From Escherichia coli (GTDB taxonomy: Bacteria > Pseudomonadota > Gammaproteobacteria > Enterobacterales > Enterobacteriaceae), in NCBI RefSeq assembly GCF_030013595.1, contig NZ_CP122768.1: DNA of 64,000 nt; one strand, given 5' to 3'. A model generated the notes under the pieces. It made no database searches, was not told where the DNA came from, and saw nothing but the letters and a program-made list of their open reading frames with translations. Shown piece after piece: positions 20,391-62,045 of the stretch. Position 1 is the stretch's first letter, and every line of letters begins with the position of its first letter. The translations under genes were made by a program, and so were the position numbers.

Positions 20391-20910
20391 TCAGCAACCC
20401 CGGTATCAGTTCATCCAGCGCGGCTGCTTTGTTCATGGCTTTGATGATATCCCGTTTCAGGAAATCAACATGTCGGTTTTCCAGTTCCGGAAAACGCCGC
20501 TGCACCGACAGGGGGATCCCGTCGAGAATACTGGCAATTTCACCTGCGATCCGCGACAGCACGAAAGTACAGAATGCGGTTTCCACCACTTCAGCGGAGT
20601 CTCTGGCATTCTTCAGTTCCTGTGCGTCGGCCTGCGCACGCGTAAGTCGATGGCGTTCGTACTCAATAGTCCCTGGCTGGAGATCTGCCTCGCTGGCCGC
20701 CCTGTAATCCTCAACCTCTTTACGGAGTTTTTCATTTTCGATATCAGCTTCCCTCTGCGCATACCACTGAATTGCCATGGCGGTATCAAATACAGATTCA
20801 ACGCCCTTACCACCTCCGGAGACGCAAGGGAGTCCCTGAGACTGCCAGCGTTCAATCGTTCGCGGATCCACGTTGAAAATTTCGGCAAGTTTCTTTTTAT
20901 TAACCTTCAT
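20365..20910 (-). CDS. Nu1: terminase small subunit Nu1
   Basis: 181 aa, N-terminal HTH, λ Nu1-like sequence. Confidence 0.9.
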
Positions 20911-21059
20911 GAAACAGTCTCACAATAAATACAGGGTCCGACATGAAAGTGCCCGAAAATGACTTTTTTATGCGTTTTCATGTCGGACCTTTTACGGATT
21001 CGATATTAGAAAAAACAAATAGTTATGTTCGAGAAGTACCGACATGATTTTCCCCGGAA

Positions 21060-21110
21060 AATTTTCATAAATAGCGAAAACCCGCGAGGTCGCCGCCCCG
21101 TAACCTGTTG
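21060..21110. other. cos: cos site (cosN 12-nt cohesive end about 21087-21098, revcomp of GGGCGGCGACCT) with flanking cosB/cosQ
   Basis: Sequence cgcgaggtcgccgccc matches the λ left-end cohesive sequence in reverse orientation, just upstream of Nu1. Confidence 0.8.
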
Positions 21111-21252
21111 GATCGACGGAAAGGACCCGTAAATGAGATGCTTTGTTGTTTTCTTGTTGGCTGTTCAACTACATGCAAGCATATGGCATAATATTTAATT
21201 GATAATCTAATAGTTATAAAAACTTGCCCCAAAACCTTAACGGAGACTAAGA

Positions 21253-21945
21253 ATGTCCAGAGAAGGAACGTTAGATTTATTGCAAGAAGTTGAAGAAACC
21301 GTTGAAATATTAAAAGATACGCAACAAATAAAACCAGTAAAGGTTAAATCAATACTTGAAAATTTAAGAAGCGCATTAGAATACGTTGCGAATGATAGTT
21401 ATGAAAAACATACCACTAACCAATCAACCCCTCGGCCAAAAATTTATTTCCCATACGGCGAGAAAAAATTTTTAGATGCTTTCTTTATTAAAAAATTAAA
21501 CTGCCAGCAACCTGAATTATCTCCATTATATGCAGTTTTTGTTTCAATCCAAGACTATCAAACTGGTAATAACTGGCTTGGAATGATGTGTAACCTCACG
21601 AACGAAGCAAAACATAGGCAACCAATCCCATTGAGTGAAGATAGTATTGTTCGAGGAATAGATGTTAATATCAATGGGTTTGGATTAATTAAGGCAGATG
21701 CTACATCAAAAATCATTTTCAGAGATAATTTCACCAATGGACAGAGAATTGAAGACTTCACCATTGAAAATGGTAAAGTTGAAAAATCAGGGAACGGAAT
21801 ACCCATCAATATTAACATGACCGAAGAGAAAAAAATAAGATTCCACGGTACAGATTATGAGGTTATTCCTTTTGTAGAGTTATGTCTAAAAGAAATAAGA
21901 GATTTTGTTAATGAAGCATATGAAATTTTAGATGCCATTGAATAA
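21253..21945 (+). CDS. hypothetical protein (230 aa), AT-rich accessory gene in the bor slot
   Basis: Long ORF with GGAG RBS, candidate TTCAAC-N17-CATAAT promoter upstream, strongly AT-rich codons, opposite strand to lysis genes; no motif recognised. Confidence 0.7.
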   Translation: MSREGTLDLLQEVEETVEILKDTQQIKPVKVKSILENLRSALEYVANDSYEKHTTNQSTPRPKIYFPYGEKKFLDAFFIKKLNCQQPELSPLYAVFVSIQDYQTGNNWLGMMCNLTNEAKHRQPIPLSEDSIVRGIDVNINGFGLIKADATSKIIFRDNFTNGQRIEDFTIENGKVEKSGNGIPININMTEEKKIRFHGTDYEVIPFVELCLKEIRDFVNEAYEILDAIE

Positions 21946-22040
21946 TAATGATTAAGTAACATGGCAGGTAATCTATTTAAACCGGCCATGTTACAAATCA
22001 TTGACGTAGAGAAAAAATGTAAAGTATATCCTTTATATAC

Positions 22041-22562
22041 TCAATTGTAATTTGATGTCCTCACCGACTCATAAACGCGCTCACACGTCATTCCAGCCCG
22101 GTAGCTTTCGTCAGATCGCTCAGCATAATATCGAGCTTCTTCTGCAAGGCGGCCGAGCATGTCGGCGAGCACTGCGGCGTCGGCTCCGGCTGTTTTGCTT
22201 CTGACGGCAGCGGCAAGATCTGCGGTGTGCTTTGCGGCGTCCAGGCGGGCGGCAAGCTTTGTTGCTTCGGTGCGCAGCTGGTTAACAGTGGCAGACAGGC
22301 CAGCAGCAGTGGCAGCAGATTTAGCTGCTTGTGCTTGTGCATCTTTTACAGCCTCATCACGGGCAATTATGCGCCCTTGTTCAATCATGCGGGCTGCGGT
22401 CTGCGCGTTCGCTGTTTGCGATGATTCCGCGCTGTCACGTTCCGCCCACTTTTTTTCCCAACCGCGGCTACACCATATATTTCCAGCGATAAACGCACTG
22501 GTCACTAGTACCGCGGCAACAATAAGCTGGGAGCACAGGCTCACTGGTCTATCCCCCAGCAC
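22041..22562 (-). CDS. Rz: i-spanin Rz
   Basis: N-terminal TM segment, Ala-rich coiled-coil periplasmic region, overlaps 3' end of endolysin gene. Confidence 0.75.
22088..22342 (-). CDS. Rz1: o-spanin Rz1 (lipoprotein) embedded in +1 frame of Rz
   Basis: Signal peptide with lipobox LLTSC, proline-rich mature region, fully nested within Rz. Confidence 0.7.
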
Positions 22563-23074
22563 GTCAACGCGCTTTCCTGATCACGGCGAATAACCTGACC
22601 GTAACAGTTATTTGAACGAATGCGGCAATCACGCCCCCTGTCCTTAATCCACCAGCGAATCGCCTCGCATGCACCTTTACGATCACCAGCATTCAGCCGC
22701 TTATAAAACGTCGACGGAAAACACTTACCGGGGCCAATGTTATAGGGACAAAATGACGCGATACCCGCTTTCTGCGGTTCGGTCAGTGGTACTTTAATAT
22801 TGCGCTCCACCCATGCCAGCGCCTTATCACGTTCAATGGCGTTCACACGGTTGCATTTTTCCCTAGACAACTTCATGCCGGGAACAACAGGCTTACCGTC
22901 CACCAGAATGGCACCACGGCAGATGGTCCAGATACCAGTACCATCACGGTATGCCGTGGTGTGGTTACCTTCTTTTTCGTCCAGAAACTGGTCGAGAATA
23001 TCAGGCGCAGGCGCACCGACGGCAATCAGTGCCAGAACGGCAGCTGACAGGCCGTATTTGATTTTTGCATTCAT
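22541..23074 (-). CDS. R: SAR endolysin (GH24 lysozyme with N-terminal signal-anchor-release domain)
   Basis: E-x8-D-x5-T catalytic triad ([16 protein letters not shown]), Gly/Ala-rich weakly hydrophobic N-terminus; resembles DLP12 RrrD. Confidence 0.9.
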
Positions 23075-23201
23075 GGATATTTATCAGGATTTATCAGTTT
23101 CTAATCTATAGATATGTTAAGCACTCAGCCCGTCAGTGGTGGATACTGGCGTATGTAATAAAGGGGGGATGGCTGATTACCTCTGATAAGGGAATGTAAC
23201 T

Positions 23202-23498
23202 ATGAACGGTATAGATCCATTCAAACCAATCAGTAAGCAACTTGATGTGGTATTACCACAACTGATAAAACACGACGACCTTCTGGATAAAGTGTTGCCT
23301 TTTTATATTGCTGTTACCGCAAAATTATCAGGTAAAACTCGAGAAGAGGTTCTCAAATATAACATGCTGGCTTTAGAAACAATTTTTGGCTCAGAAAAAG
23401 CGGGAAAATCACCCAAAGAGCTGGCAGAATCTCAATTTGCTTATATGACAAATATAAGAGTATCCGAAATCTTTGATAAGCTACCAGACATTGAATAA
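23202..23498 (+). CDS. hypothetical protein (98 aa), AT-rich, opposite strand inside lysis cassette
   Basis: ORF with AT-rich composition between endolysin and holin genes; no motif recognised. Confidence 0.55.
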   Translation: MNGIDPFKPISKQLDVVLPQLIKHDDLLDKVLPFYIAVTAKLSGKTREEVLKYNMLALETIFGSEKAGKSPKELAESQFAYMTNIRVSEIFDKLPDIE

Positions 23499-23499
23499 T

Positions 23500-23525
23500 T
23501 TCTAAGCGGCAGTAATGCCGCTTTA
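23500..23525. terminator. hairpin between convergent 98-aa and 72-aa genes (possibly bidirectional terminator)
   Basis: agcggca-gtaa-tgccgct stem-loop flanked by T/A runs. Confidence 0.45.
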
Positions 23526-23741
23526 TATTTTTTCAGCCAAATTTTTCAAGAACTGTTTGGCATGTTTTACCGCAGTAACTTCATAATAATCCAAGCCAGC
23601 TCCTTCAAGTCGCTCAAGGGTGATGTTCAGATCAAAAATTTCACCGGCAAAATGTTCTTTGTCCTGTAACGTTAAGATTACCGTAACTTTATTCTCAAAA
23701 TTGCGGATCCCTTTCACAATCAGTTCATAGTTTTGAGTCAT
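23523..23741 (-). CDS. small lysis-region protein (72 aa), YdfR/DUF1327-like by recollection
   Basis: Co-oriented ORF immediately downstream of holin gene; family assignment from memory only. Confidence 0.6.
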   Translation of the reverse strand: MTQNYELIVKGIRNFENKVTVILTLQDKEHFAGEIFDLNITLERLEGAGLDYYEVTAVKHAKQFLKNLAEKI

Positions 23742-23745
23742 TGAA

Positions 23746-23961
23746 TTACTCTCCCCGTGCAGCCTTTCGTCTGTCTTCTCTGATTTTGAAATACAGATTT
23801 GTCAGATAAGTCAAAAAGCCCAGAACTAGACTTCCCAGCACACCAATTGCAGCCCACTGTGACGGACTGACCTGATCCAACCACTGCAAAAACCAGTATC
23901 CCGCACTACCAGCGGATGTTCCGTAGGCAATGCCAGTTGAGATTTTGTCCATTGATTTCAT
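23746..23961 (-). CDS. S: class II holin (S21/EssD-type pinholin, 71 aa, dual-start MKSM)
   Basis: Two TM segments, dual start motif, C-terminal basic tail; matches phage 21 S / DLP12 EssD. Confidence 0.9.
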
Positions 23962-24079
23962 AGCAACGCCTCCGCCAGTAACGGATTGCGTAGTTCTTAT
24001 ATTGGGAAGGGAGAAAAAGAAGACCGCAGCATAACTATCACTGATGAATTCAGGATAGCCAGTGGCTACGGCTCAGTTA

Positions 24080-24155
24080 TGGTGCTGGTTAACGGACTTG
24101 AACCGCTACCCATTCGCTTACAAGGCGACCGCTCTACCATTGGAGCTAAACCAGC
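24080..24155 (-). tRNA. tRNA-like gene, anticodon UGU (Thr) by hand folding
   Basis: 76 nt cloverleaf: acceptor GCTGGTT/AACCAGC, D-arm GCTC…GAGC, anticodon loop CTTGTAA, T-loop TTCAAGT, CCA end. Confidence 0.55.
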
Positions 24156-24160
24156 ATATT

Positions 24161-24235
24161 TGGCGGGACAGCGTGGACTCGAACCACGATAAGAAGGTTA
24201 ACAGCCTTCCGTAATGACCTTTATACGACTGACCC
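24161..24235 (-). tRNA. second tRNA-like element, anticodon GUU (Asn?) with imperfect acceptor/D arm; possibly a pseudo-tRNA
   Basis: T-arm CGTGG-TTCGAGT-CCACG, anticodon stem GAAGG/CCTTC loop CTGTTAA, CCA end; one acceptor mismatch. Confidence 0.4.
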
Positions 24236-24237
24236 AA

Positions 24238-43098: not shown

Positions 43099-45360
43099 TT
43101 ACATCTGACGGTTTTTATTGAAGTTAATCAAACTACCCGCCTTGATAATCTCGCGCTCTTCGGCCGTCAGGCTTTCCATGTAAAGCGTAATTTCCGTTAC
43201 CGGCGCATCTTCATGGATCACATAACCTTTAAACGTCGTACCCGGATTATCCAGCGCTGCTTTAATGCCAGGGATGTAAATGTAATCCCCCACTTCAAAC
43301 GTTGGTGCTTCCGCCATCTGCAGCGGTAACATCCCCCAGTTGATGACGTTAGAACGGTAGCGTTTAGTCGCGTACTCCTCGGCAATATTCGCCAGACCGC
43401 CAATCACACGCTGGCAGCTCGCCGCCTGCTCACGCGCAGAACCATCGCCTGGTTTCACCGCATAGACCATGCTGCCAATTTCAGTTTGCAGCGGATCAAT
43501 ATGCTCCTGACCAGCAATCTGCTTAATGCGCGCAAACACCTCTGTCAGCTCGCTGACATTCCCCGCCAGACGCTGATTTTCCAGCTCAGCAGTCGCTTTA
43601 CTTCTGCCAACATAACCTGGATCGCGGCGTGACAGGGTAAACTCCGCCAGACCAATCGGATTTGAACGATAAGAAGAGGTTTCACCGGAAGGGATCAGTT
43701 CGTCGGTGGTGGTCACTTCGTCGAGGATCTTCGAGCACACTTTGAGGACGATATTGTCAGTTAGCGCCCCCAATTCTGGCCAGTCTTTTATGTTCGGTCC
43801 GTAAATCAATGGTTGCTGGGTCGCCCCTTTCACAAAGCCCTGATAAACACGGTTTTTATACGGAGTTACATCGAAGGCGTACTCCGGTACGTTGTCCCAG
43901 CAATCAAGTTCGCTGGCAGAGGTTAAATAGCCACCGTTTGCCGCAGTCGCAGCGATAGAACGAGCGTCCATCAACGCCACCGCTGACATCTGCCCATTGG
44001 CTGGCTTAGAGCCTTCGCGGTTCGGGAAGTTACGCGTGGTGTGGCGAATACTCAAACCGTTGTTGATTGGCGTATCGCCCGCGCCAAAGCATGGGCCGCA
44101 GAACGCGGTTCTGATGATTGCGCCTGCGCCAATCAAATCTGCTACCACGCCTTTTTTGGCTAAATCCATAAACACCGGCTGTGATGACGGGTAAACCGCT
44201 AACGAGAAGGTGTCATTGCCACAGGATTGACCGCGCAGCGCATTCGCCGCCGCGATGACGTTTTCATAGTTACCGCCAGAACAGCCCGCGATAATCCCCT
44301 GCTGCACTTTCAGGCGACCATTTTCCACTTTATCCAGCAGCGAGAGTTTGGCTTTACCGTGCGCCACGCGTTCGGACTCAATTTCAATCTCACGCAGAAT
44401 ATCGGTCAGGTTCTGGTTCAGCGTGTCGATTTCATATACGTTGCTCGGGTGGAACGGCAGCGCAATCATTGGTTTGATGGCGCTTAAATCAACGCTGATG
44501 CAGCCATCGTAGTATGCCATCGGTTGAGGGTTAAGCTGGCAGTAATCCTGGCCGCGTCCGTGCAGCGCCAGCCAGTTATGGACTTCTTCATCGGTTTGCC
44601 AGACAGAACTTAAACAGGTCGTTTCAGTGGTCATAACGTCAACGCTGTTACGGAAATCGGTAGAGAGCGCAGCAACACCGGGACCTACGAATTCCATCAC
44701 TTTGTTTTTGACGTAGCCGTTTTTGAACACGGCACCGATGATAGCCAGCGCCACATCCTGTGGCCCCACATACGGCGCAGGCTTTCCGGTCAAATGCACC
44801 GCAACAACTCCCGGATAGTCGATATCCCATGTGTCATTAAGCAGCTGTTTTACCAACTCACCGCCACCCTCACCGACTGCCATTGTCCCTAATGCACCGT
44901 AACGGGTGTGGCTGTCTGACCCGAGGATCATTTTGCCGCCGCCTGCCATCATCTCACGCATATATTGATGGATGACCGCAATATGCGGAGGCACAAAAAT
45001 ACCGCCATAACGCTGAGCCGCCGATAAACCAAAAACATGGTCATCACCGTTAATGGTGCCGCCGACGGCGCAAAGTGAGTTATGGCAGTTGGTCAGCACA
45101 TACGGCAGCGGGAAACGTTCCATACCGGACGCTTTAGCGGTCTGTACAATACCAACAAAGGTAATATCGTGAGAGGCTAATGAATCAAACTTAATTTTAA
45201 GTTTATCCATATTTCCGGACGTATTATGAGAAGAGAGAATAGACCAGGCAATAGTGCCTTTTTTTGCTTCTTCTTTTTTAATTTCGCCGGTGAAATGTTC
45301 TTCGGCAATTATTTCGTTATTACTGGCGAGAAACACGCCTTTTTCAGATAACTTGATCAT
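43099..45360 (-). CDS. ybhJ: YbhJ aconitase-family protein
   Basis: 753 aa from ATG at MIKLSEKG (track start is an upstream GTG); aconitase-like Fe-S ligand region. Confidence 0.85.
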
Positions 45361-45410
45361 CAAATGCTCCAGATATCTGCGCACCGTGAAGTGCGCAGAA
45401 AGATAATAAA

Positions 45411-45540
45411 TGGATATACTCTAAATAATTCGAGTTGCAGGAAGGCGACAAGCGAGTGAATCCCCAGGAGCTTACATAAGTAAGTGACTGGGGTGAGCGA
45501 ACGCAGACGCAGCACATGCAACTTGAAGTATGACGAGTAT
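45411..45540. repeat. ERIC/IRU repetitive element
   Basis: Contains gtgaatccccaggagcttacataagtaagtgactggggtgagcg core. Confidence 0.65.
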
Positions 45541-45542
45541 AT

Positions 45543-46976
45543 TTACAGCATGTTCCAGCCGATCAGCATATTCCACCACCACACGCCGAGGGTGATATGC
45601 ACCAGGAAGGTTAATATCGTCAGTACCGCACCGACCAACCACCAGGATTTAATATCGTTGTAACCCACGCCAAAGATGACCGGACCTGCCGCGCCGCCAT
45701 AGTGAGTAACCATGCCGCCATAGGAGTTAGAGAACAACAGTGCCAGCGCGGTTAACATTAACGGTGCGCCGGAGACGTTCGCCAGCATGGCAAATACCGG
45801 TAACATAGCAACGATATAGGCACTACCGGAAGCGAAGAAATAACGAACGATGATGCTGAGGAAAATAATAACGAAGAAAGCAACGTTACCGTGACCATCA
45901 AATGCCAGGTTATTTTTAAAGACTTCAGCTAACCATTCGAAAAATTTAACTTTCGATAATAAGGAGCTTAAGCCGATAATACCGCCGTACCAGATTAAGG
46001 TATTCCATCCGCCTTTATTTTTAACCACGTCTTCCCAGGTAACGATACCCAGCAGCAGCATGGTCGCCATAACAACGATTGCCACGGTGGATTCATCAAC
46101 CCCCAGAGACTTACTGAAAATCCAGCCCAGTAGCGCCAGCACAAAGACACCGAGCAGCATTTTTTCGCGGATTTTCATCGGTCCCAGTTCGGCAAGGCCC
46201 GCTTTGGCGATGGTTTTGTTATCCACCTTCTTAATTTCTGGCGGATACATGGTGTAAATCACCAGCGGGGTGACCAGCAGCATAATGATGCCCGGCAATC
46301 CGGCTGCCAGCGCCCATCCACCCCAGCTAATTTGCAGGTGCAGAATGTCGTTGATCATTTTCAGCGCCAGAATGTTCCCCGCCATTGCGGTAAAGAACAT
46401 ATAGCTGGTGGTTTTGGTGACCATGTAAATGGACATCATCAGGTAATGTCCGACACGACGCGGACTTTTTTCCGGTTCGGACCCCAAAGCCACCGCCACG
46501 CTGTTGATGATCGGTAACACAATGCCGCCCGCACGCGCGGTGTTAGACGGTGTTGCCGGAGCCAGTACCAGATCGAGGAATACCGTAACGTAACCCAGAC
46601 CCAGCGTGGTGTTACCGATTTTACCAATCAGCAGATAGGCTATACGTTTACCTAAGCCGGTGGTCACAAATGCGGCGCTTAAGGTAAACGCCGAGAACAC
46701 CAGCCAGGTGGTACCTGAAGAGTAACCGCTTAATACGGCGGTGGTCTTAAACGCACCGTCGGATAAGTTACCGACCACCACCATTGAGGCAGCAACGGCA
46801 ATTAACAGTACGACAGGTTCCGGGAAAGGCTTGATAACCAGCCCCACAATGGCCGCCAGGTAAATACCAAAAAGCACCCACGCCAGTTCGCTTAATCCTG
46901 CCGGAGCTGGCATAAAGCCAATAATACATGGGATCGCTAATATCAGAATTAGCTTCCATAACGATTTTTTATTCAT
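45543..46976 (-). CDS. ybhI: YbhI DASS-family anion transporter
   Basis: 477 aa polytopic membrane protein. Confidence 0.85.
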   Translation of the reverse strand: MNKKSLWKLILILAIPCIIGFMPAPAGLSELAWVLFGIYLAAIVGLVIKPFPEPVVLLIAVAASMVVVGNLSDGAFKTTAVLSGYSSGTTWLVFSAFTLSAAFVTTGLGKRIAYLLIGKIGNTTLGLGYVTVFLDLVLAPATPSNTARAGGIVLPIINSVAVALGSEPEKSPRRVGHYLMMSIYMVTKTTSYMFFTAMAGNILALKMINDILHLQISWGGWALAAGLPGIIMLLVTPLVIYTMYPPEIKKVDNKTIAKAGLAELGPMKIREKMLLGVFVLALLGWIFSKSLGVDESTVAIVVMATMLLLGIVTWEDVVKNKGGWNTLIWYGGIIGLSSLLSKVKFFEWLAEVFKNNLAFDGHGNVAFFVIIFLSIIVRYFFASGSAYIVAMLPVFAMLANVSGAPLMLTALALLFSNSYGGMVTHYGGAAGPVIFGVGYNDIKSWWLVGAVLTILTFLVHITLGVWWWNMLIGWNML

Positions 46977-47051
46977 TTAAAATCCTGTTCTTTCTGTATG
47001 ACTCATACAGAAGTCCTTTATTGATTGTCCTTATCCTGACAACGAATTTTT

Positions 47052-48104
47052 TCAGGGAAGAAAAACTTCACCGGAAAATATTTTTCTGGTTGTCCGAATA
47101 ACAGATGCGCGTAACGTCGTGGCATCCTGACCTTCATTACTTAAATGAACGTCGAGCGCACCACTGGGGTGTTCAATATTGATATTGCCGTATCCTACAG
47201 AAGGGACGATTTGTCGGGTGACGGTGCCTTCCAATGCACAACTACTGGAAATGGCAATAGCACCGGTTATCGCCAGCGCGCGATGGCAAGAATGCGGCAT
47301 AAAATAACGCACATTAATTGCTCCGCCTTTCTGCGCTGGAGAAATAAGCACAGGTTTAGGGATAACCATATTACTGACATCGCCTAAGCCCATTGCTTTA
47401 CCCGCTTGTAGACGGATAGATTCAATGCGGGCTAATAATGCTTTGTCGGCATCCAGCTCCGCCGGTAATTCATAGCCTGTTTTTCCCAGATATTCAGCAG
47501 GAATAATGACAACTGGCATCGCCATATCGATACAGGTCACCGGGACATCGTCAAAATAATCAATCTGATTATCCGTCGGGAAGACTTTTCCGGTTTTGGT
47601 TCCGGCGGCATTCAGGAAAGTGAGCGCAACCGGTGCGGCAGTACCCGGTACGCCGTCAATTCTGGCGCAACCCTCGTACTCGACAACACCATTTGGCGTT
47701 TGCACATCAGCTTCGATGAACGTACCCGTATTGACGTTGCGGATACGTACGCGGGTAACTGGCGAAGTCGCTGCAATCAAACCATTTTCAATGGCGAATG
47801 CCCCAACGCCAGACAGCATATTGCCGCAGTTAGGCGTGGTATCGACACGTTGCTCATGGACGATAACTTGAGCAAACAGATAATCGACATCTGCACGCGG
47901 ATCGCTGGAGCGGCTAATAATGGCGACTTTACTGGTCAGCGGATTACCGCCGCCAATACCGTCAATTTCCAGATCGTTACCGGAACCCATAATTGCCATC
48001 AATATTTTATCGCGCTGCGTTTGATCTTCGGGTAGATGTTCCGCTAACAGGAACGCGCCCCTCGAGGTTCCACCTCGCATCATCACGCAGGGTATTTTTT
48101 TCAT
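47052..48104 (-). CDS. ybhH: YbhH PrpF-family isomerase
   Basis: 350 aa. Confidence 0.85.
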   Translation of the reverse strand: MKKIPCVMMRGGTSRGAFLLAEHLPEDQTQRDKILMAIMGSGNDLEIDGIGGGNPLTSKVAIISRSSDPRADVDYLFAQVIVHEQRVDTTPNCGNMLSGVGAFAIENGLIAATSPVTRVRIRNVNTGTFIEADVQTPNGVVEYEGCARIDGVPGTAAPVALTFLNAAGTKTGKVFPTDNQIDYFDDVPVTCIDMAMPVVIIPAEYLGKTGYELPAELDADKALLARIESIRLQAGKAMGLGDVSNMVIPKPVLISPAQKGGAINVRYFMPHSCHRALAITGAIAISSSCALEGTVTRQIVPSVGYGNINIEHPSGALDVHLSNEGQDATTLRASVIRTTRKIFSGEVFLP

Positions 48105-48287
48105 AATAATGCCCTCAATTTAAAAACATAACTTATTGCGATATGGTTACATTAAGGGCAAAGCATCTCTAATGACTTTAGCTCAACGATTAATAACATT
48201 TTTTCATTAATTTAAGTTGGCTAAATGCAGTTAAAATTTTTAACGGCCAGCTACCCAAAATCGACGCTTCCATTTTCCGGAGTAATA

Positions 48288-49241
48288 ATGAAGCATGAAT
48301 TATCAAGTATGAAGGCATTTGTCATACTGGCAGAGTCCAGTTCATTTAACAATGCCGCTAAATTACTCAATATTACGCAACCTGCATTAACGCGAAGAAT
48401 AAAAAAGATGGAGGAAGATTTACATATCCAACTATTTGAGCGTACAACTCGCAAGGTTACGTTAACAAAAGCAGGAAAAAGATTGCTCCCGGAGGCGCGG
48501 GAATTAATAAAGAAACTCGATGAAACGCTTTTTAATATTCGTGATATGAATGCTTATCATCGTGGTATGGTGACGTTAGCGTGTATTCCGACTGCAGTAT
48601 TTTATTTTTTACCGCTGGCAATCGGTAAATTTAATGAGCTGTATCCCAATATTAAAGTGCGAATTCTGGAACAAGGCACGAATAATTGCATGGAATCGGT
48701 GCTGTGTAACGAATCAGACTTTGGCATAAACATGAACAACGTCACAAATTCATCCATTGATTTTACCCCACTGGTCAACGAGCCGTTCGTGCTGGCCTGT
48801 CGGCGTGACCATCCATTGGCCAAAAAGCAGCTTGTTGAATGGCAGGAGTTAGTGGGTTACAAAATGATTGGCGTACGTTCCTCCAGCGGCAACCGATTGT
48901 TGATAGAACAACAGCTAGCCGACAAGCCCTGGAAGCTGGACTGGTTTTACGAAGTGCGTCATCTTTCGACGTCATTAGGACTGGTGGAGGCAGGACTGGG
49001 GATTTCGGCGCTTCCTGGTCTGGCAATGCCCCATGCGCCCTATTCTTCGATTATTGGTATCCCACTGGTGGAACCCGTTATACGTCGGACATTGGGGATT
49101 ATTCGCCGCAAAGATGCCGTGCTTTCTCCGGCAGCTGAACGCTTTTTTGCCTTGCTGATTAATTTGTGGACTGACGATAAAGACAATTTGTGGACCAATA
49201 TCGTCGAACGCCAGAGACATGCGTTACAGGAGATAGGTTAA
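48288..49241 (+). CDS. ybhD: YbhD LysR-family transcriptional regulator
   Basis: Start at MKHELSSMKAF; HTH LysR N-terminus. Confidence 0.85.
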   Translation: MKHELSSMKAFVILAESSSFNNAAKLLNITQPALTRRIKKMEEDLHIQLFERTTRKVTLTKAGKRLLPEARELIKKLDETLFNIRDMNAYHRGMVTLACIPTAVFYFLPLAIGKFNELYPNIKVRILEQGTNNCMESVLCNESDFGINMNNVTNSSIDFTPLVNEPFVLACRRDHPLAKKQLVEWQELVGYKMIGVRSSSGNRLLIEQQLADKPWKLDWFYEVRHLSTSLGLVEAGLGISALPGLAMPHAPYSSIIGIPLVEPVIRRTLGIIRRKDAVLSPAAERFFALLINLWTDDKDNLWTNIVERQRHALQEIG

Positions 49242-49281
49242 TACACCGGCGCAGGAGAGACTGCGCCGGGTAAATCAGCGG

Positions 49282-50313
<1,032 letters not shown>

Positions 50314-50431
50314 CTAAAATTAGTCGCTTTTGGCGGTGAATGCTGAATTAAAACGCAGAATTTTGTCCGATAGTGGTATCGGTGTACCATTCGCGCAGAC
50401 GAAAATTCTTAACCTTAATCTGGAATACGCC

Positions 50432-51250
50432 ATGACCACACGCGTGATTGCTCTCGACTTAGACGGCACCTTATTGACCCCGAAAAAGACCCTGCTTCCT
50501 TCATCGATAGAAGCTCTGGCCCGTGCTCGCGAAGCAGGCTATCAATTAATCATCGTCACAGGTCGCCATCACGTCGCTATTCATCCTTTTTATCAGGCGC
50601 TGGCGCTGGATACACCTGCTATTTGCTGTAATGGCACCTATTTGTATGATTATCATGCAAAAACAGTGCTGGAAGCGGACCCAATGCCCGTTAATAAAGC
50701 CCTGCAACTCATTGAGATGCTGAATGAACACCACATTCACGGTCTGATGTATGTGGATGATGCGATGGTCTATGAGCACCCGACCGGGCATGTCATTCGC
50801 ACGTCTAACTGGGCGCAAACCCTGCCGCCGGAACAGCGTCCGACTTTCACACAAGTCGCTTCTCTGGCTGAAACGGCGCAACAAGTTAACGCCGTATGGA
50901 AGTTCGCCCTGACGCACGACGACCTGCCGCAATTGCAGCATTTTGGTAAGCATGTCGAACATGAACTGGGACTGGAGTGTGAATGGTCCTGGCACGATCA
51001 GGTTGATATTGCACGCGGCGGCAACAGCAAAGGTAAACGTTTGACGAAATGGGTTGAGGCACAAGGTTGGTCGATGGAAAACGTCGTGGCATTCGGCGAT
51101 AACTTTAATGATATCAGTATGCTGGAAGCCGCTGGTACAGGCGTGGCGATGGGCAACGCCGATGACGCGGTAAAAGCGCGCGCCAACATTGTGATTGGTG
51201 ATAACACCACCGACAGCATTGCCCGGTTCATTTATAGCCACCTGATTTAA
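50432..51250 (+). CDS. ybhA: YbhA HAD-family pyridoxal phosphate phosphatase
   Basis: Start at MTTRVIALDLDGTLL (HAD motif I); 272 aa. Confidence 0.85.
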   Translation: MTTRVIALDLDGTLLTPKKTLLPSSIEALARAREAGYQLIIVTGRHHVAIHPFYQALALDTPAICCNGTYLYDYHAKTVLEADPMPVNKALQLIEMLNEHHIHGLMYVDDAMVYEHPTGHVIRTSNWAQTLPPEQRPTFTQVASLAETAQQVNAVWKFALTHDDLPQLQHFGKHVEHELGLECEWSWHDQVDIARGGNSKGKRLTKWVEAQGWSMENVVAFGDNFNDISMLEAAGTGVAMGNADDAVKARANIVIGDNTTDSIARFIYSHLI

Positions 51251-52309
51251 TCAGGCAGTTATCGACACACTTTTAATTTGCGCGTACAGCCACAGGCCAG
51301 GTTTGATCGCCAGTTCATCCCTGGCCCACGGGCTGATACGCGCCCACAGCGTTTTACCGCCGACTTCCAGCTCCACTTCCACCTGGCCGTTGTCGTCATA
51401 ACTATTAACAACTTTTGCCCGCAATACGTTACGAATGCTGGTTTGCTGCGGCGGTTGTAAAACCAGCGAGACATCGGAAGCCTGAATGCGGATGCGTAGC
51501 GCAGCTTGCAGCGGTTCGTCCAGCTTATTGACCCACAAATGCTGATCGCCCAGCGCCAGCGCGGTCATCGCGTAATGCGGATGATGCTCAAGCACCGTCA
51601 CTTTCAGAATGCTACTTTGTTGCTCTTTCGGCAGCCACGGATTCATCACGCTACTGCCCCACACTTCCTCCAGCGCGCCAAAGGCTTTCACCTGACCGTT
51701 TTCCAGTACCATCACTCTGTCTGCCAGATGGAGGATCTCATCCAGCGAATGGCTGACATACAACATCGGAATGTTGATTTCCCGTGTCAGCCGTTGCAGA
51801 TAAGGCAACAGTTCGCGTTTACGCGGAATATCCAGTGACGCCAGCGGTTCATCCAGCAACAGCAATTCCGGTGCTGTCAGCAAAGCCCGACCAATCGCCA
51901 CGCGCTGTTTTTCGCCTCCGGACAGGCTGCCTGGTAAACGGTCAAGCAACGGTTCAATGCCTAAAAGCGCCACCAGCTTATCGAACTGAACGACCATACT
52001 TTTCGACATGCCGTAGCGCAGATTGCCACGCACTTTGTAATGCGGGAACAGCCGCGCATCCTGAAAAACATAGCCAACGCGACGCTTTTCCGGCGTCAGG
52101 CAGATACCTTTTTCGGCATCATTTAGTACCCGCCCATTGAGGACAATCCGCCCTTTTTGCGGGCGCGTCAGTCCACTGATGGCGTTAATCAGCGAAGTTT
52201 TTCCGGCACCGGAGACGCCAAAGATAGCAGTGATGCCATTGGCGGGCAGCGTTTCATTAATGATCAGGCAATGGTTGCCCAACGTCTGGGAAAAATTCAG
52301 TTCCAGCAT
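51251..52309 (-). CDS. modC: molybdate ABC transporter ATPase
   Basis: 352 aa, Walker [11 protein letters not shown]-terminal TOBE domain. Confidence 0.9.
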
Positions 52310-52311
52310 GA

Positions 52312-53001
52312 TTAGCGCCCCGCCCGTTCACGGCTGATTCTGGCCAGCCATTCTGAAATCAACAGGGAGATCATCGCCAGCGCAATAGAAATAATGCACA
52401 GTCTCGCCGCGCCACTTTCCCCGCCGGGGGTCTGGATCAGGGTATACATGGCAGAAGGAATGGTTCGCGTTTCACCAGGAATGTTCGACACAAAGGTGAT
52501 GGTTGCACCAAACTCACCGAGAGAACGAGCAAAAGCCAGTACCGTACCAACAATAATGCCCGGTAAGGTCAGCGGTAACGTGATAGTAAAGAAAACGCGC
52601 CAGCGCCCGGCACCCAGTGTTCTTGCGGCCTGTTCCAGTTTGACATCAACCCCTTCCAGCGCCAGACGAATTGCCCGCACCATCAGCGGAAACGACATGA
52701 CGGCGGCAGCGAGAACCGCGCCGCGCCAGCTAAAGGCGAAGGTAATGCCAAACCAGTCATACAGACGTTCACCGATAAATCCGCGCCGTCCCATCGAAAC
52801 TAATAATAAGTAACCGACGACCACGGGCGGTAACACCAGCGGTAGATGCAGTACGCTATCGAGCAGAGCTTTGCCCGGAAACGTGCAACGCACCAGTAAC
52901 CAGGCAAAAAAGATCCCAAACGGCAGGCTAAACAGCACAGCCAGGGAAGAAACTTTCAGGCTTAGTAAAACCGCCTGCCATTCTGGATCGGTCAGTATCA
53001 T
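52312..53001 (-). CDS. modB: molybdate ABC transporter permease
   Basis: 229 aa. Confidence 0.9.
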
Positions 53002-53774
53002 TACTTGGTTGTAAATCCGTAACGTTTAAAGATTTCCGCAGCCTGCGGCCCCTTCAGATAATCATAAAATGCTTTCACTGTCGCATTGTTATGCCCTTCC
53101 ACAACTGCAACCGGATATTCCACTTTTTTATGTGAATCTTCCGGGAAGGTGGCAACCACTTTTACCCCTTTGCTGGCAACTGCGTCAGAACCGTAAACAA
53201 TACCCAGCGGCGCTTCATTGCGTTCGACCAACGCCAGCGCGCCACGAACATCTTCCGCCGGAGCCAGTTTCGGGGAGAGCGTATCCCATGCGCCCAGTTT
53301 TTGCAGTGCTTCTTTTGCATAAATGCCAGCGGGAACATGTTCCGGATCGCCAACCGCCAGGCGACCGCCATTCAGCAGTGAAGTCCAGTTGGTTTTGCTG
53401 TCGATGGTGAAATCTTTCTGCTCGCTGGCTTTCGGTGCTACAACGACCAGGCTATTGCCGAGCAGTGTCTGACGCGTAGCTGTATCGATCGCTTTTTTAT
53501 CAACCGCATAATCCATCCATTTCTGATCGGCAGAAATAAACAGATCCGCAGGGGCACCCGCTTCAATCTGACGGGCGAGAGTAGATGACGAAGCGAAAGA
53601 AGAAACCACATCCACGCCTTTCTCTTTTTTATACTGCGTAGCAATGTCCTGCATTGCGTTAGTCAGTGATGCGGCGGCGAACACCGTGATTTTCCCTTCA
53701 TCTGCCACTGCATTGCCAGCAACAGCGAAAGAGAGTGCCGCCCCGGCAAACAAGTTCAACCATTTACGAGCCAT
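53001..53774 (-). CDS. modA: molybdate-binding periplasmic protein
   Basis: 257 aa with signal peptide. Confidence 0.9.
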   Translation of the reverse strand: MARKWLNLFAGAALSFAVAGNAVADEGKITVFAAASLTNAMQDIATQYKKEKGVDVVSSFASSSTLARQIEAGAPADLFISADQKWMDYAVDKKAIDTATRQTLLGNSLVVVAPKASEQKDFTIDSKTNWTSLLNGGRLAVGDPEHVPAGIYAKEALQKLGAWDTLSPKLAPAEDVRGALALVERNEAPLGIVYGSDAVASKGVKVVATFPEDSHKKVEYPVAVVEGHNNATVKAFYDYLKGPQAAEIFKRYGFTTK

Positions 53775-53940
53775 TGGTAACCCCTTAATGTAACGTTATG
53801 TAGGCGACAATATAACGACTAACTCGGAATTTTCCCAGCAGTTATTGCTAACCTTTGTGAGGTAGTTAAGAAAAAATATCGGCAGGAAAAGCAGGAAGTT
53901 GAGAAAAAGAAAATGCCCGACTAAGCGGGCATTCAGGGAA

Positions 53941-54108
<168 letters not shown>

Positions 54109-54218
54109 TCATGAGACTATTCTAACCGCTAAGCACAGAAAAGCACTCCCCTTTTGTGCGGTCAGCTTTGCGTGGCGTTCGTTTTCCGTCACAATAAGAC
54201 TTTTGCCAGGACATTGTT

Positions 54219-55007
54219 ATGCAGGCCGAAATCCTTCTCACCCTTAAGCTCCAACAAAAATTATTCGCCGACCCGCGCCGCATTTCGCTACTAAAACACA
54301 TTGCGCTTTCCGGTTCCATTAGCCAGGGAGCGAAAGATGCCGGTATCAGCTATAAAAGCGCCTGGGATGCCATTAACGAGATGAATCAGTTAAGTGAGCA
54401 TATTCTGGTCGAGCGCGCAACAGGCGGTAAAGGTGGCGGCGGCGCAGTACTGACCCGCTATGGTCAGCGACTGATTCAGCTCTATGACTTACTGGCGCAA
54501 ATCCAGCAAAAAGCCTTTGATGTGTTAAGTGACGATGACGCCCTGCCGCTGAACAGCCTGCTGGCCGCGATCTCACGTTTTTCACTGCAAACCAGCGCCC
54601 GTAACCAGTGGTTCGGTACCATCACCGCCCGCGATCATGATGACGTTCAACAGCATGTTGATGTCTTACTGGCTGATGGAAAAACACGCCTGAAAGTCGC
54701 AATTACCGCACAAAGCGGCGCGCGTCTGGGGCTGGATGAAGGCAAAGAAGTGTTGATATTGCTAAAAGCGCCGTGGGTAGGCATTACTCAGGACGAAGCT
54801 GTCGCACAAAACGCCGACAACCAATTACCGGGTATTATTAGTCATATTGAGCGCGGCGCAGAGCAGTGCGAAGTATTAATGGCGCTACCCGACGGGCAAA
54901 CACTGTGCGCCACAGTGCCGGTAAATGAAGCGACTTCTCTTCAGCAAGGACAGAATGTCACGGCCTACTTTAATGCCGACAGCGTGATTATCGCCACGCT
55001 GTGCTAA
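54219..55007 (+). CDS. modE: molybdate-responsive transcriptional regulator ModE
   Basis: 262 aa, N-terminal HTH, tandem TOBE domains. Confidence 0.9.
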   Translation: MQAEILLTLKLQQKLFADPRRISLLKHIALSGSISQGAKDAGISYKSAWDAINEMNQLSEHILVERATGGKGGGGAVLTRYGQRLIQLYDLLAQIQQKAFDVLSDDDALPLNSLLAAISRFSLQTSARNQWFGTITARDHDDVQQHVDVLLADGKTRLKVAITAQSGARLGLDEGKEVLILLKAPWVGITQDEAVAQNADNQLPGIISHIERGAEQCEVLMALPDGQTLCATVPVNEATSLQQGQNVTAYFNADSVIIATLC

Positions 55008-55074
55008 GCGTGTTGACAATTTGTTATGAAACACGTATCCCTGTCAGTAATCGCTGCACAAAATGGGATATAAA

Positions 55075-56547
55075 ATGTCATCGTTGCAAATTTTGCAAGG
55101 CACGTTTCGTCTTGGCGACACAAAAACGCTGCAATTGCCTCAGCTAACGTTAAACGCGGGTGATAGTTGGGCGTTTGTCGGTTCGAATGGAAGCGGGAAA
55201 TCGGCCCTGGCCCGTGCGCTGGCGGGGGAACTTCCGCTTTTGAAAGGTGAACGGCAAAGCCAGTTTTCCCACATCACTCGTCTCTCCTTCGAGCAATTGC
55301 AAAAGCTCGTCAGCGACGAATGGCAGCGGAATAATACCGATATGCTTAGTCCTGGCGAAGATGACACCGGGCGTACCACGGCTGAGATCATTCAGGATGA
55401 AGTAAAGGATACTCCGCGTTGCATGCAACTGGCGCAGCAGTTCGGTATTACCGCCCTCCTCGACCGACTCTTTAAATACCTTTCCACTGGCGAGACGCGA
55501 AAAACCCTGCTGTGTCAGGCGCTGATGTCGGAGCCTGACTTGTTGATTCTTGATGAGCCGTTCGATGGCCTGGATGTTGCCTCACGTCAGCAGCTGGCTG
55601 AGCTACTCGCCTCGTTACATCAGTCCGGTATTACTCTGGTAATGGTGCTCAATCGCTTCGATGAGATCCCAGAATTTGTCCAGTTTGCTGGCGTGCTGGC
55701 GGATTGTACGTTAGCGGAAACTGGCGCTAAAGAGGAACTGCTCCAGCAAGCACTCGTCGCGCAACTGGCGCATAGCGAACAGCTTGAAGGTGTACAACTG
55801 CCGGAGCCGGATGAACCTTCAGCACGTCACGCCTTACCCGCCAACGAACCGCGCATTGTGCTGAACAACGGCGTGGTTTCTTATAACGATCGCCCCATTC
55901 TTAATAACCTTAGCTGGCAGGTGAATCCAGGCGAGCACTGGCAAATTGTCGGGCCAAATGGCGCGGGAAAATCGACGTTATTAAGCCTGATTACTGGCGA
56001 TCATCCGCAAGGTTACAGCAACGATTTGACGCTTTTCGGACGACGTCGCGGCAGCGGCGAAACCATCTGGGATATCAAAAAGCATATCGGTTACGTCAGC
56101 AGTAGTTTGCATCTGGATTACCGGGTCAGCACTACCGTGCGTAATGTGATCCTTTCTGGCTATTTTGATTCGATTGGCATTTATCAGGCCGTTTCGGATC
56201 GCCAGCAAAAACTGGTGCAGCAGTGGCTGGATATTCTCGGCATTGATAAACGCACGGCTGACGCTCCTTTCCATAGTCTTTCCTGGGGGCAACAACGCCT
56301 GGCGCTGATCGTCCGTGCACTGGTGAAACATCCGACGTTGCTTATTCTCGATGAACCACTACAGGGGCTTGATCCGCTCAATCGCCAGCTTATCCGCCGG
56401 TTTGTTGATGTGCTGATTAGCGAAGGTGAAACGCAATTGTTGTTTGTTTCGCACCACGCTGAAGATGCGCCTGCCTGTATTACCCATCGTCTTGAGTTCG
56501 TGCCAGACGGCGGACTCTATCGCTATGTGCTGACAAAAATAAATTGA
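55075..56547 (+). CDS. modF: ModF ABC-family ATPase (two ATP-binding domains)
   Basis: Start at MSSLQILQG; two Walker A motifs (GSNGSGKS, GPNGAGKS). Confidence 0.85.
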   Translation: MSSLQILQGTFRLGDTKTLQLPQLTLNAGDSWAFVGSNGSGKSALARALAGELPLLKGERQSQFSHITRLSFEQLQKLVSDEWQRNNTDMLSPGEDDTGRTTAEIIQDEVKDTPRCMQLAQQFGITALLDRLFKYLSTGETRKTLLCQALMSEPDLLILDEPFDGLDVASRQQLAELLASLHQSGITLVMVLNRFDEIPEFVQFAGVLADCTLAETGAKEELLQQALVAQLAHSEQLEGVQLPEPDEPSARHALPANEPRIVLNNGVVSYNDRPILNNLSWQVNPGEHWQIVGPNGAGKSTLLSLITGDHPQGYSNDLTLFGRRRGSGETIWDIKKHIGYVSSSLHLDYRVSTTVRNVILSGYFDSIGIYQAVSDRQQKLVQQWLDILGIDKRTADAPFHSLSWGQQRLALIVRALVKHPTLLILDEPLQGLDPLNRQLIRRFVDVLISEGETQLLFVSHHAEDAPACITHRLEFVPDGGLYRYVLTKIN

Positions 56548-56714
56548 GTCGGTAGTGCTGACCGTGCCGGAGGCGGCCTAAGCGCCCTCTCCGGCCAACG
56601 GTTCGACGCATCCAGGCATGAAACCGCGTCTTTTTTTCAGATAAAAAGCGCAATCATTCATAAACCCTCTGTTTTATAATCACTTAATCGCACATAAAAA
56701 AAGGTTAAACTCTT

Positions 56715-56730
56715 GTGTAAACGATTCCAC
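56715..56730. promoter_or_regulatory. gal operator OE (GTGTAAACGATTCCAC) in the galP1/P2 promoter region with adjacent CRP site
   Basis: Exact operator-like 16-mer upstream of galE. Confidence 0.7.
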
Positions 56731-56808
56731 TAATTTATTCCATGTCACACTTTTCGCATCTTTGTTATGCTATGGTTATTTCATACCATAAGCCTAATGG
56801 AGCGAATT

Positions 56809-57825: not shown

Positions 57826-57834
57826 GGAACGACC

Positions 57835-58881: not shown

Positions 58882-58884
58882 GAA

Positions 58885-61067: not shown

Positions 61068-61269
61068 TGTTAAGCCCTCGTCATGAGGGCTTTATCCTCA
61101 TATTGTTCAAATCACCAGCAAACACCGACATATTTGCAACTCAATATTCACAACAACCTTACACTGCGACACTATTTTCGCTATGGTTATGCGTAAGCAT
61201 TGCTGTTGCTTCGTCACGGCAATATAATGAGAATTATTATCATTAAAAGATGATTTGAGGAGTAAGTAT

Positions 61270-62022: not shown

Positions 62023-62045
62023 ACGTCATTCGTTTAAAAATGAGA

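Follow-up and report, generated by a model that had tools for sequence, protein, structure and literature searches.

The window, a 64,000-nucleotide stretch of DNA from Escherichia coli (contig NZ_CP122768.1), contains what is very probably the lysis cassette and late-operon leader of a lambda-like prophage, in which the late-expression switch of phage lambda would drive a patchwork of pinholin, signal-anchor-release (SAR) endolysin and spanin genes. The gene identities and the joints between the parts are the direct outcome of sequence comparisons, whereas the pinholin/SAR mechanism is one that we infer from homology to S21 of phage 21 and to R of phage 933W. The features of the locus are listed below.

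24510–25133, minus strand: late antiterminator Q, lambda-type, 207 aa (PF03589, 192 bits; inside the 97.5% lambda match)
24415–24467, minus strand: promoter pR' with the overlapping qut (−35 TTGACT at 24467–24462, −10 TAAATT at 24444–24439; promoter scan)
24238–24295, minus strand: terminator tR' (stem CCCGAAAC...GTTTCGGG plus T-run; sequence and lambda alignment)
24161–24235, minus strand: phage tRNA-Asn (GUU), CCA encoded (ARAGORN; Rfam RF00005, 55 bits)
24080–24155, minus strand: phage tRNA-Thr (UGU), CCA encoded (ARAGORN; Rfam, 61 bits)
24020–24078, minus strand: 59-bp lambda-like island (lambda 44945–45003, 90%; blastn and three-way alignment)
23746–23961, minus strand: class II holin/antiholin of the S21 type, 71 aa from M1 and 68 aa from M4 at 23952 (PF04971, "P21 holin S", 122 bits; cut-off 26 bits)
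23523–23741, minus strand: DUF1327/YdfR-family protein, 72 aa, 4 nt past the holin stop (PF07041, 93 bits; cut-off 25 bits; match to profile positions 1–71 of 93)
23504–23533, plus strand: terminator hairpin and T-run of ORF98 (terminator scan; the late strand is not T-rich)
23202–23498, plus strand: ORF98, a 98-aa helical protein, antisense and convergent with the DUF1327 gene (phrog_25324, E 1.6e-60)
22541–23074, minus strand: predicted SAR-type endolysin, 177 aa, a T4-lysozyme-like muramidase (PF00959)
22041–22544, minus strand: i-spanin Rz of the DUF2514/RzpQ type, 167 aa (PF10721, 162 bits; phrog_312, Rz-like spanin)
22088–22342, minus strand: o-spanin Rz1, 84 aa, lying wholly within Rz in the +1 frame (phrog_11621)
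21253–21945, plus strand: ORF230, 230 aa, antisense, of low GC (0.30), at the position of lambda bor
21099–21133, minus strand: cos region, where lambda homology returns (lambda 48468–48502; blastn)

All features listed by the sequence-only reading are present at the coordinates it gave; they lie on the minus strand. The DUF1327 gene, ORF98, ORF230 and the 59-bp island had been passed over in that reading.

The prophage is apparently intact and occupies the E. coli attachment site of lambda (attB, gal-bio). Its lambda-type region for packaging, head and tail is complete, with structural genes that are 96–97% identical to those of lambda-like phages, and it also carries cos, Nu1 and A. In strain HCP5S3_I2, the complete genome of which matches the chromosomal flank at 100%, the prophage site is empty.

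The control region is of the lambda type, as had been read from the letters. Window positions 25143–24238 align to lambda 43875–44781 with 97.5% identity over 907 bp (blastn), a match that takes in Q, pR', qut and tR'. Both pR' hexamers are intact and the tR' hairpin is conserved; two substitutions relative to lambda are found in the promoter spacer and one, T to C, just downstream of the −10 hexamer, and phage Kapi1 has all three. The lambda homology ends at the BLAST end point of 24238, three bases ahead of the tRNA-Asn gene, which places the junction 3 nt past the tR' T-run, in line with the earlier proposal of a junction within a few bases of the T-run at the start of the tRNA genes. Further downstream, the tRNA pair replaces lambda 44782–44944, and the 59-bp island follows, beyond which the non-lambda cassette starts. 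The segment 24019–21134 stands in place of lambda 45004–48467, up to cos. The late region thus shares Q, pR', qut, tR', the island and cos with lambda, but lambda has no tRNAs, its S is a canonical three-TMD holin, its R is a cytoplasmic transglycosylase, and its own Rz/Rz1 and bor are replaced here. The frame at the bor position, ORF230, has no match in Pfam or NCBIfam, and PADLOC gives only a weak 45-residue match to BrxC (E 0.0077); a Foldseek search against the PDB returned nothing below E 0.1. A HEPN toxin was considered for ORF230 and remains no more than a weak lead, the conserved motif being T-N-x-x-x-H and not R-x4-6-H.

The leader with its two tRNA genes has close relatives among other lambdoid phages. 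Over window 25200–24018, a stretch that runs from ninH and takes in Q, tR', the two tRNA genes and the 59-bp island, identity to Kapi1 is 98.5%, and mEp506, phiv205-1 and HK446 carry the same Q–tRNA-Asn–tRNA-Thr stretch with 97.5–98.5% identity. The tRNA-Asn is identical to that of Kapi1 and the tRNA-Thr differs from its Kapi1 counterpart by 1 nt, while both are clearly unlike the host genes asnT and thrU. In Kapi1, however, a lambda/P22-type three-TMD holin and a soluble endolysin come next. Phage tRNA genes are also found after tR' in the late leader of the Stx phage 933W, where the leader contains ileZ-argN-argO together with stx2AB. A role of the tRNAs in offsetting codon bias was considered and set aside: the late genes taken together use ACA 9.7 times per 1000 codons and Asn at an ordinary rate, which gives no clear signal.

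Comparison of the lysis genes with known cassettes shows that their likeness changes from gene to gene. The holin is most similar to that of the phage 21/DLP12 cassette (essD-rrrD-rzpD/rzoD): it has 71 aa, the M1/M4 dual start and the S21 motifs, with 86% identity to EssD, and the predicted mechanism of SAR endolysin release by a pinholin would be the same as in phage 21. By contrast, identity of the endolysin to RrrD/R21 is no more than 35%, Rz aligns poorly with RzpD (24%, not significant), RzoD is unrelated to the Rz1 of this locus, and in neither phage 21 nor DLP12 does any gene separate the holin from the endolysin. The suggested check by alignment with phage 21 and DLP12 therefore holds for the holin, but a poor result is to be expected for two genes out of three. 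The cryptic prophage Qin (essQ-ydfR-rrrQ-rzpQ/rzoQ) has the same order of holin, DUF1327 protein, endolysin, DUF2514 Rz and embedded 84-aa Rz1, with identities of 83% (EssQ), 90% (RrrQ), 60% (RzpQ) and 59.5% (RzoQ of K-12, of equal length) for holin, endolysin, Rz and Rz1, respectively. Qin differs in its Q and its upstream genes (cspB/cspF), and its YdfR has 103 aa with a stop that overlaps the rrrQ start, whereas here a 72-aa protein is followed by the antisense ORF98; the DNA homology to Qin is lost at 23581 and returns at 23084. Phage 933W resembles the locus in its endolysin (89%) and holin (77%), but lacks a DUF1327 gene, has ant between R and Rz, and carries lambda-type Rz/Rz1 and bor.

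Recombination joints were located at about 24238–24245, 24019, 23759, 23581, 23151/23084, 22083 and 21133. The replacement did not come as one swap; it is pieced together from modules in circulation among lambdoid prophages, and the block of tRNAs and holin, which normally precedes an R21-type endolysin, is joined here to genes that by their similarity are of the Qin/933W type. The proposal that lambda S-R-Rz had been exchanged for a pinholin/SAR module thus stands with respect to homology and sequence features, but not as the transfer of a single module, and it leaves out the lambda-like island after the tRNAs and a 610-bp two-gene insert. The exact combination of the cassette was absent, at a coverage of at least 80%, from 5,426 complete E. 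coli genomes and 50,697 phage records.

The insert (23125–23733) lies between holin and endolysin and consists of the DUF1327 gene and ORF98. The 72-aa protein corresponds to the N-terminal domain only, with 58% identity to residues 1–72 of YdfR, and stand-alone DUF1327 forms of 71–76 aa occur among the library representatives. ORF98 has 16 homologs, all of them in Enterobacterales; its AF2 model (pLDDT 84) contains four helices, and a fold search with it gave no informative match. The whole insert recurs in a quite different lysis region of Cronobacter with 78% DNA identity; the spacing of 24 nt is kept there, and the hairpin does not differ. Distant relatives of ORF98 are encoded antisense within tail operons, each convergent with another small late-strand gene. 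The 93–95-aa partner found there was examined as a hidden DUF1327 domain, a reading rejected as unsupported, with no Pfam match and an hhalign probability of 0.1% from tiny alignments. That the insert is a mobile two-gene accessory unit, in which ORF98 has its own promoter region and terminator, is an unlikely reading, favoured by the recurrence in Cronobacter and by the placement of the distant ORF98 relatives. Such a unit may comprise a lysogen-expressed effector, acting in defence or exclusion, and a late-expressed partner that counteracts it; alternatively, the late partner may tune late-mRNA decay and lysis timing via RNase E. More widely, the DUF1327 N-domain may anchor a slot dedicated to cargo in the space that separates pinholin and SAR endolysin.

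The insert also bears on the question of whether the cassette works at all. The cassette might be an inactive relic, like its homologs in Qin and DLP12, both cryptic prophages, or be crippled by the 610 bp between holin and endolysin. It is indeed in the defective Qin prophage that the nearest annotated relatives of the endolysin and spanins are found, the space between holin and endolysin holds an antisense gene that has a terminator of its own, and the ribosome-binding site of the endolysin is weak, with no obvious Shine-Dalgarno sequence read at its start; the convergent antisense gene upstream of this start could lower endolysin expression. Nonetheless, the reading frames are all intact, no catalytic residue is missing, the lipobox and the dual start are there, and the complete packaging, head and tail region, together with cos, Nu1 and A, retains its 96–97% identity to phage genomes. 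The deposited genome of phage Evi keeps the same order of holin, 72-aa protein, 98-aa protein and endolysin. Moreover, the hairpin of the insert has no T-run on the late strand, and Q-modified polymerase reads past terminators, as is established for lambda. On balance, we regard a relic as very unlikely and the cassette as probably that of an intact prophage.

The endolysin had been described as having an E-x8-D-x5-T triad and an N-terminal SAR segment; the triad is present, and the N-terminus does have a weakly hydrophobic segment. The triad is formed by E35, D44 and T50 within the PF00959 domain, and the R21 structure (3hde) is matched with an E value of 1e-14; E35, D44, T50, eight cysteines and A23-P24 are invariant across 80 loci. 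Transmembrane segments of the holin, the endolysin and Rz were judged by Kyte-Doolittle hydropathy. At the endolysin N-terminus, K4 and K6 precede a weakly hydrophobic segment of 18 residues (Y7 through P24) with 50% Gly/Ala/Ser/Thr and a mean value of 1.61, compared with 65% and 1.99 for the segment of RrrD/R21. This agrees with the description of SAR domains as basic residues followed by a weakly hydrophobic TMD of ~20 residues that is rich in Gly, Ala, Ser and Thr. The paper with this description, from the Young laboratory, counts 933W R among the SAR endolysins and employs it as one (PMC9239132).

The same N-terminus is also laid out, in its n, h and c regions, like a Sec signal peptide, and the enzyme might instead be secreted conventionally, its signal peptide being removed by signal peptidase I and its activity controlled otherwise, in which case the holin would not work by freeing it from the membrane. 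K4/K6, a hydrophobic stretch from L9 to V19 and a G-A-P-A-P region resemble a signal peptide, A18-V19-G20 followed by A21 is a formally possible cleavage site, and the eight invariant cysteines suggest a domain with disulfide bonds in the periplasm. However, the best candidate AxA site, A21-x-A23, is followed by P24, which is Pro in 80 of 80 loci, and because Pro at +1 blocks signal peptidase I, cleavage at A23 is argued against. The 89% identity to 933W R, an enzyme treated as a SAR endolysin in published experiments, and the nearly constant pairing with an S21-type pinholin (upstream in 75 of the 80 viral loci with this type of endolysin) point the same way; a pinholin triggers SAR enzymes, whereas an enzyme in the cytoplasm cannot be released by it. 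We therefore consider secretion with cleavage to be highly improbable, and a SAR endolysin remains the preferred reading.

The holin corresponds to the 71-aa, dual-start class II protein of the S21/EssD type that had been proposed. Its start reads M1-K2-S3-M4, with GGAGG located 7 nt upstream of the first ATG, and the dual start is predicted to give a 71-aa antiholin with an extra Lys and a 68-aa holin. The motifs D2-K3-I4, YWFLQW and LDQVSPSQ described for S21 (bioRxiv 10.1101/2021.04.20.440580) are present. TMD1 (residues 8–28) has a mean Kyte-Doolittle value of 0.33 and 57% Gly/Ala/Ser/Thr, and TMD2 (residues 36–58) has a mean of 1.50 and contains the zipper G40-V-L-G-S44-L-V-L-G48 (GxxxSxxxG). 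By Kyte-Doolittle hydropathy alone TMD1 was not called transmembrane, as expected of a SAR-like TMD, and the two-TMD topology consequently rests on homology. The three-TM pattern of lambda S was sought by hydropathy in the holin, and one strong segment and a weak Gly/Ala/Ser-rich TMD1 were found in its place. In 16 of the 18 viral contigs that share the block 24245–23759, a holin of 99–100% identity has an R21/RrrD-type SAR endolysin (98–99%) directly behind it, which indicates that this allele works with SAR endolysins. Large non-specific holes like those of lambda S105, with an N-terminal endolysin segment irrelevant to release, are extremely improbable for a 71-aa member of PF04971 that has a single strongly hydrophobic segment beside a weak one, S21 motifs and a GxxxSxxxG zipper, and an identical or near-identical allele of which adjoins R21-type SAR endolysins in those 16 contigs.

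The spanin genes conform to the arrangement anticipated from the sequence, an Rz with a fully embedded lipoprotein Rz1. Rz shares 98.8% identity with a 167-aa protein that PGAP annotates in E. coli S43. The start of Rz is likely the GTG at 22544, which overlaps the endolysin stop, and not the start of the 173-aa reading frame; hydropathy places an N-terminal TMD at residues 4–32 of the long frame. Rz1 has the lipobox L-T-S-C and a mature form of 62 aa with 11 Pro, and it spans 0.40 to 0.905 of the length of Rz. Both its position and the lipobox fit the rule for embedded spanins (0.4–0.5 to 0.9–1.0) and the consensus [LVI][ASTVI][GAS]C (PMC6139136).

Taken as a pathway, lambda-type Q would modify RNA polymerase at pR'/qut and permit readthrough of tR', and the late transcript would carry tRNA-Asn (GUU) and tRNA-Thr (UGU) first. 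The S21-type pinholin would then be made as a 71-aa antiholin and a 68-aa holin; next in order would come the small DUF1327 protein, the SAR endolysin of the Qin/933W type and the Qin-type Rz/Rz1. Sec would export the endolysin, and its weakly hydrophobic, uncleaved N-terminal segment would hold it inactive in the inner membrane. At the programmed time, TMD1 of the holin would exit the bilayer and TMD2, through G40xxxS44xxxG48, would form small pinholes. Upon depolarization of the membrane, the endolysin would be released, refold and cut the murein, and the Rz–Rz1 complex would then remove the outer membrane.

By itself the finding is of little weight. The modules have all been annotated already in E. 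coli prophages, and their combination is a case of the ordinary shuffling of lambdoid modules; it is standard for a lambdoid prophage to have a pinholin/SAR cassette under a Q-dependent late promoter, with Qin, DLP12, phage 21 and the Stx phages as examples, and a pinholin/SAR pair is predicted in 99% of Stx phages (PMC8136144). An identical or near-identical S21 holin allele (99–100%) adjoins two families of SAR endolysins that are ~35% identical to each other, and this fits a depolarization trigger rather than specific contacts between holin and endolysin. The only mildly new lead is the pair formed by the short DUF1327 gene and ORF98 on 610 bp, which recurs as a unit in Cronobacter. Across 75 loci, the gap between holin and endolysin has at least 10 length classes, and frequently a different antisense ORF is found in it. 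The interval is a polymorphic slot in which the DUF1327 N-domain always comes first and an antisense small gene is often present, and which automated annotation overlooks. YdfR has been linked to RNase E, and with this link the slot may merit a dedicated study.

The lysis cassette is an ordinary patchwork of known, annotated lambdoid modules, and each piece is common under an existing name (essD, YdfR family protein, rrrQ lysozyme, DUF2514 protein). The sequence-only reading had described a pinholin, a signal-anchor-release (SAR) endolysin and an Rz with an embedded Rz1 in place of the lambda lysis genes; sequence comparisons confirm the features it listed and support this functional interpretation.

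Features of the lysis region and its surroundings (window coordinates)
25133-24510, minus strand: Q, lambda-type
24467-24462 and 24444-24439, minus strand: pR', -35 (TTGACT) and -10 (TAAATT)
24295-24238, minus strand: tR' hairpin and T-run
24235-24161, minus strand: tRNA-Asn(GUU)
24155-24080, minus strand: tRNA-Thr(UGU)
23961-23746, minus strand: holin, 71 aa
23741-23523, minus strand: DUF1327 protein, 72 aa (DUF1327-short)
23202-23498, plus (opposite) strand: ORF98, 98 aa
23125-23733: 610-bp unit (ORF98 upstream region, ORF98, hairpin, DUF1327-short)
23074-22541, minus strand: endolysin, 177 aa
22544-22041, minus strand: Rz
22342-22088, minus strand, +1 frame: Rz1, 84 aa, embedded in Rz
21253-21945, plus (opposite) strand: ORF230, 230 aa
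about 21133-21099, minus strand: cos
20910-20365, minus strand: Nu1
20390-18465, minus strand: Terminase A

The late-operon leader is of lambda type, with 97.5% identity between window 25143-24238 and lambda 43875-44781. When the region is aligned three ways with lambda and phage Kapi1, both promoter hexamers (-35 and -10) prove intact, as do the stem of tR' and its T-run, and lambda similarity is lost about 3 nt past the T-run, exactly at the start of tRNA-Asn, so that the junction had been placed accurately. Two features had been overlooked. A 59-bp island 3' of tRNA-Thr (24078-24020) is 90% identical to lambda 44945-45003, which implies that the tRNA pair exactly replaces lambda 44782-44944 and puts the start of the non-lambda lysis region near 24019. 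In addition, the stretch from ninH through Q, tR', the tRNAs and the island shares 98.5% identity with Kapi1, in which the holin that follows this leader has three TMDs and the endolysin is soluble. Both phage tRNAs have an encoded CCA, are identical or near-identical to the Kapi1 pair and are clearly distinct from host asnT and thrU; late-gene codon usage revealed no obvious reason for carrying them. The pair is found in two combinations, with lambda Q and a P22/lambda-type lysis cassette (Kapi1, mEp506, HK446) and with an S21 holin and R21-type endolysin (16 viral contigs, within the set L098-L115).

The holin matches the Pfam family "Bacteriophage P21 holin S" with 122 bits; it shares 86% identity with EssD, 83% with EssQ and 77% with 933W S. 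It has the dual-start motif M-K-S-M at its N-terminus and carries D2-K3-I4, the aromatic patch YWFLQW and the loop LDQVSPSQ, which an independent study describes as features of S21-68 (bioRxiv 10.1101/2021.04.20.440580); EssD and EssQ depart from S21 in the patch and the loop. The three TM segments of a lambda S-type holin were looked for, and hydropathy instead gave one strong segment at residues 36-58 (mean 1.50), which contains G40xxxS44xxxG48, and a second, weak one at residues 8-28 that is rich in Gly/Ala/Ser (mean 0.33, 57% G/A/S/T); this is the pattern expected from sequence for a pinholin whose TMD1 can exit the membrane.

The endolysin is a T4-lysozyme-like muramidase (PF00959) with the triad E35-x8-D44-x5-T50. 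It is 90% identical to Qin RrrQ and 89% to 933W R but only 35% to RrrD, the DLP12 copy of R21, and the R21 crystal structure is a distant match. Its N-terminus, with K4 and K6 followed by Y7-P24 at 50% G/A/S/T, meets the published description of SAR domains, and the same source lists and uses a "phage 933W SAR endolysin" within a panel of SAR enzymes (PMC9239132). E35, D44, T50, eight cysteines and A23-P24 are invariant at 80 viral-contig loci of this type. The predicted SAR segment is devoid of cysteine, unlike that of P1 Lyz, and ends in an invariant A-x-A-P (residues 21-24) at the 80 loci. Proline at +1 blocks a signal-peptidase site, and the AxA-P looks like a site blocked in this way.

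Rz falls in the DUF2514 family (162 bits) and matches phrog_312, "Rz-like spanin"; it shares 99% identity with a 167-aa protein that PGAP annotates in E. coli S43 and 60% with RzpQ, and is unrelated to lambda-type Rz/RzpD. Translation probably starts at the GTG at 22544, which follows a GGGGGA and overlaps the stop codon of the endolysin gene. Rz1 lies wholly within Rz and shares 59.5% identity with K-12 RzoQ. The L-T-S-C lipobox conforms to the consensus, with Ala at +2 and 11 prolines across the 62-aa mature part, and Rz1 extends from 0.40 to 0.905 of the length of Rz, as is typical of embedded o-spanins.

Between holin and endolysin lie two further genes that had been overlooked. The first, DUF1327-short, starts 4 nt past the holin stop and consists of the N-terminal domain alone of the DUF1327/YdfR family (profile positions 1-71 of 93). 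It is convergent with the second, ORF98, across 24 nt that hold a hairpin; the T-run is on the ORF98 strand only, and late transcription should therefore pass through. ORF98 has 16 homologs and is confidently modeled as a four-helix protein (AF2 pLDDT 84), for which an informative fold match was not found. Phage Evi and a Qin-like prophage of E. coli share the order holin, 72-aa gene, 98-aa gene, endolysin. The 610-bp unit recurs in a Cronobacter prophage (L117 3422-4032) with 78% DNA identity and an identical hairpin, where it follows a truncated Rz fragment at the downstream end of another type of lysis cassette. ORF98 also has more remote relatives (60-67% identity) in prophages of Serratia and Escherichia, placed antisense within lambda-like tail operons, between H and M or I and J (L007 4001-4602, L008 2941-3538 and L009 4001-4597). 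Each of these converges on a late-strand gene of 93-95 aa, for which a relationship to DUF1327 was sought and not detected.

The interval from holin stop to endolysin start was surveyed at 80 viral loci with an RrrQ-type endolysin (L013-L092). An S21-type holin lies upstream at 75 of the 80, and a DUF1327 N-domain gene adjoins the endolysin at 73. Gap length varies from 374 to 2004 nt, with at least ten classes. The DUF1327 proteins of the gap (104-268 aa) have the first ~70 residues in common and C-termini of varying length; its antisense ORFs of 88-104 aa are of several kinds, at least five of the small antisense ORFs being unrelated, and at one locus an IS element is inserted. Exhaustive searching with HMMER yielded only 51 representatives of the DUF1327 family, from short fragments up to 287 aa plus three large multidomain matches; the match is N-terminal in nearly all, and ~72-aa stand-alone forms are included. 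The unit and its polymorphic slot are the one mildly novel lead.

ORF230 is antisense between Rz and cos, where lambda has bor. Its 59 homologs are from Enterobacteriaceae, and in prophages of Enterobacter and Raoultella they have the same place, between lysis genes and terminase. The AF2 model is confident (pLDDT 90); defence-system profiles gave no significant match, PADLOC returning a weak 45-residue match to BrxC (E 0.0077). ORF230 and the DUF1327-short/ORF98 pair constitute two low-GC islands (0.30-0.37). Upstream of Q, the region ~25130-26686 contains ninH, rusA, an HNH endonuclease and a 240-aa antirepressor-like gene. The gene order there follows P22-like Kapi1, not lambda, and with lambda-like structural genes downstream the prophage is a mosaic throughout. 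The chromosomal flank (44000-64000; galK, modF, ybhI, ybhJ and neighbours) places it at lambda attB (gal-bio); in strain HCP5S3_I2, whose complete genome matches the flank at 100%, this site has no prophage.

Searching with the exact sequence across the 24019 junction retrieved 18 viral contigs, and window 24245-23759, which spans the tRNA pair, the island and nearly all of the holin, is present in them at 96-99%. In 16 of them, an R21/RrrD-type endolysin (98-99%) directly follows an identical or near-identical holin (99-100%), and the tRNA and S21 holin block thus normally resides in a phage-21-type cassette; only one (L111) has, as in the window, the DUF1327 gene and RrrQ-type endolysin after the holin. 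By sequence comparison, the block is recombined onto Qin/933W-type genes about 13 nt before the holin stop. Other joints lie at 23581 (inside the DUF1327 gene), 23151/23084, 22083 and 21133. No phage record or complete E. coli genome covered at least 80% of window 20900-24600.

A predicted pinholin/SAR pair is reported for 99% of Stx phages (Pinto et al., PMC8136144). In the present prophage, Q-modified polymerase would carry transcription from pR' past tR' and across the tRNAs into the lysis genes, and both holin forms (68 and 71 aa) would build up in the inner membrane. TMD1 would then leave the bilayer and TMD2 oligomerise into pinholes; loss of the proton-motive force would free the Sec-exported, membrane-tethered endolysin, which would refold and degrade murein before Rz-Rz1 disrupts the outer membrane. 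The occurrence of the same or a near-identical holin allele with two endolysin families of 35% mutual identity agrees with a trigger that would act by non-specific depolarisation.
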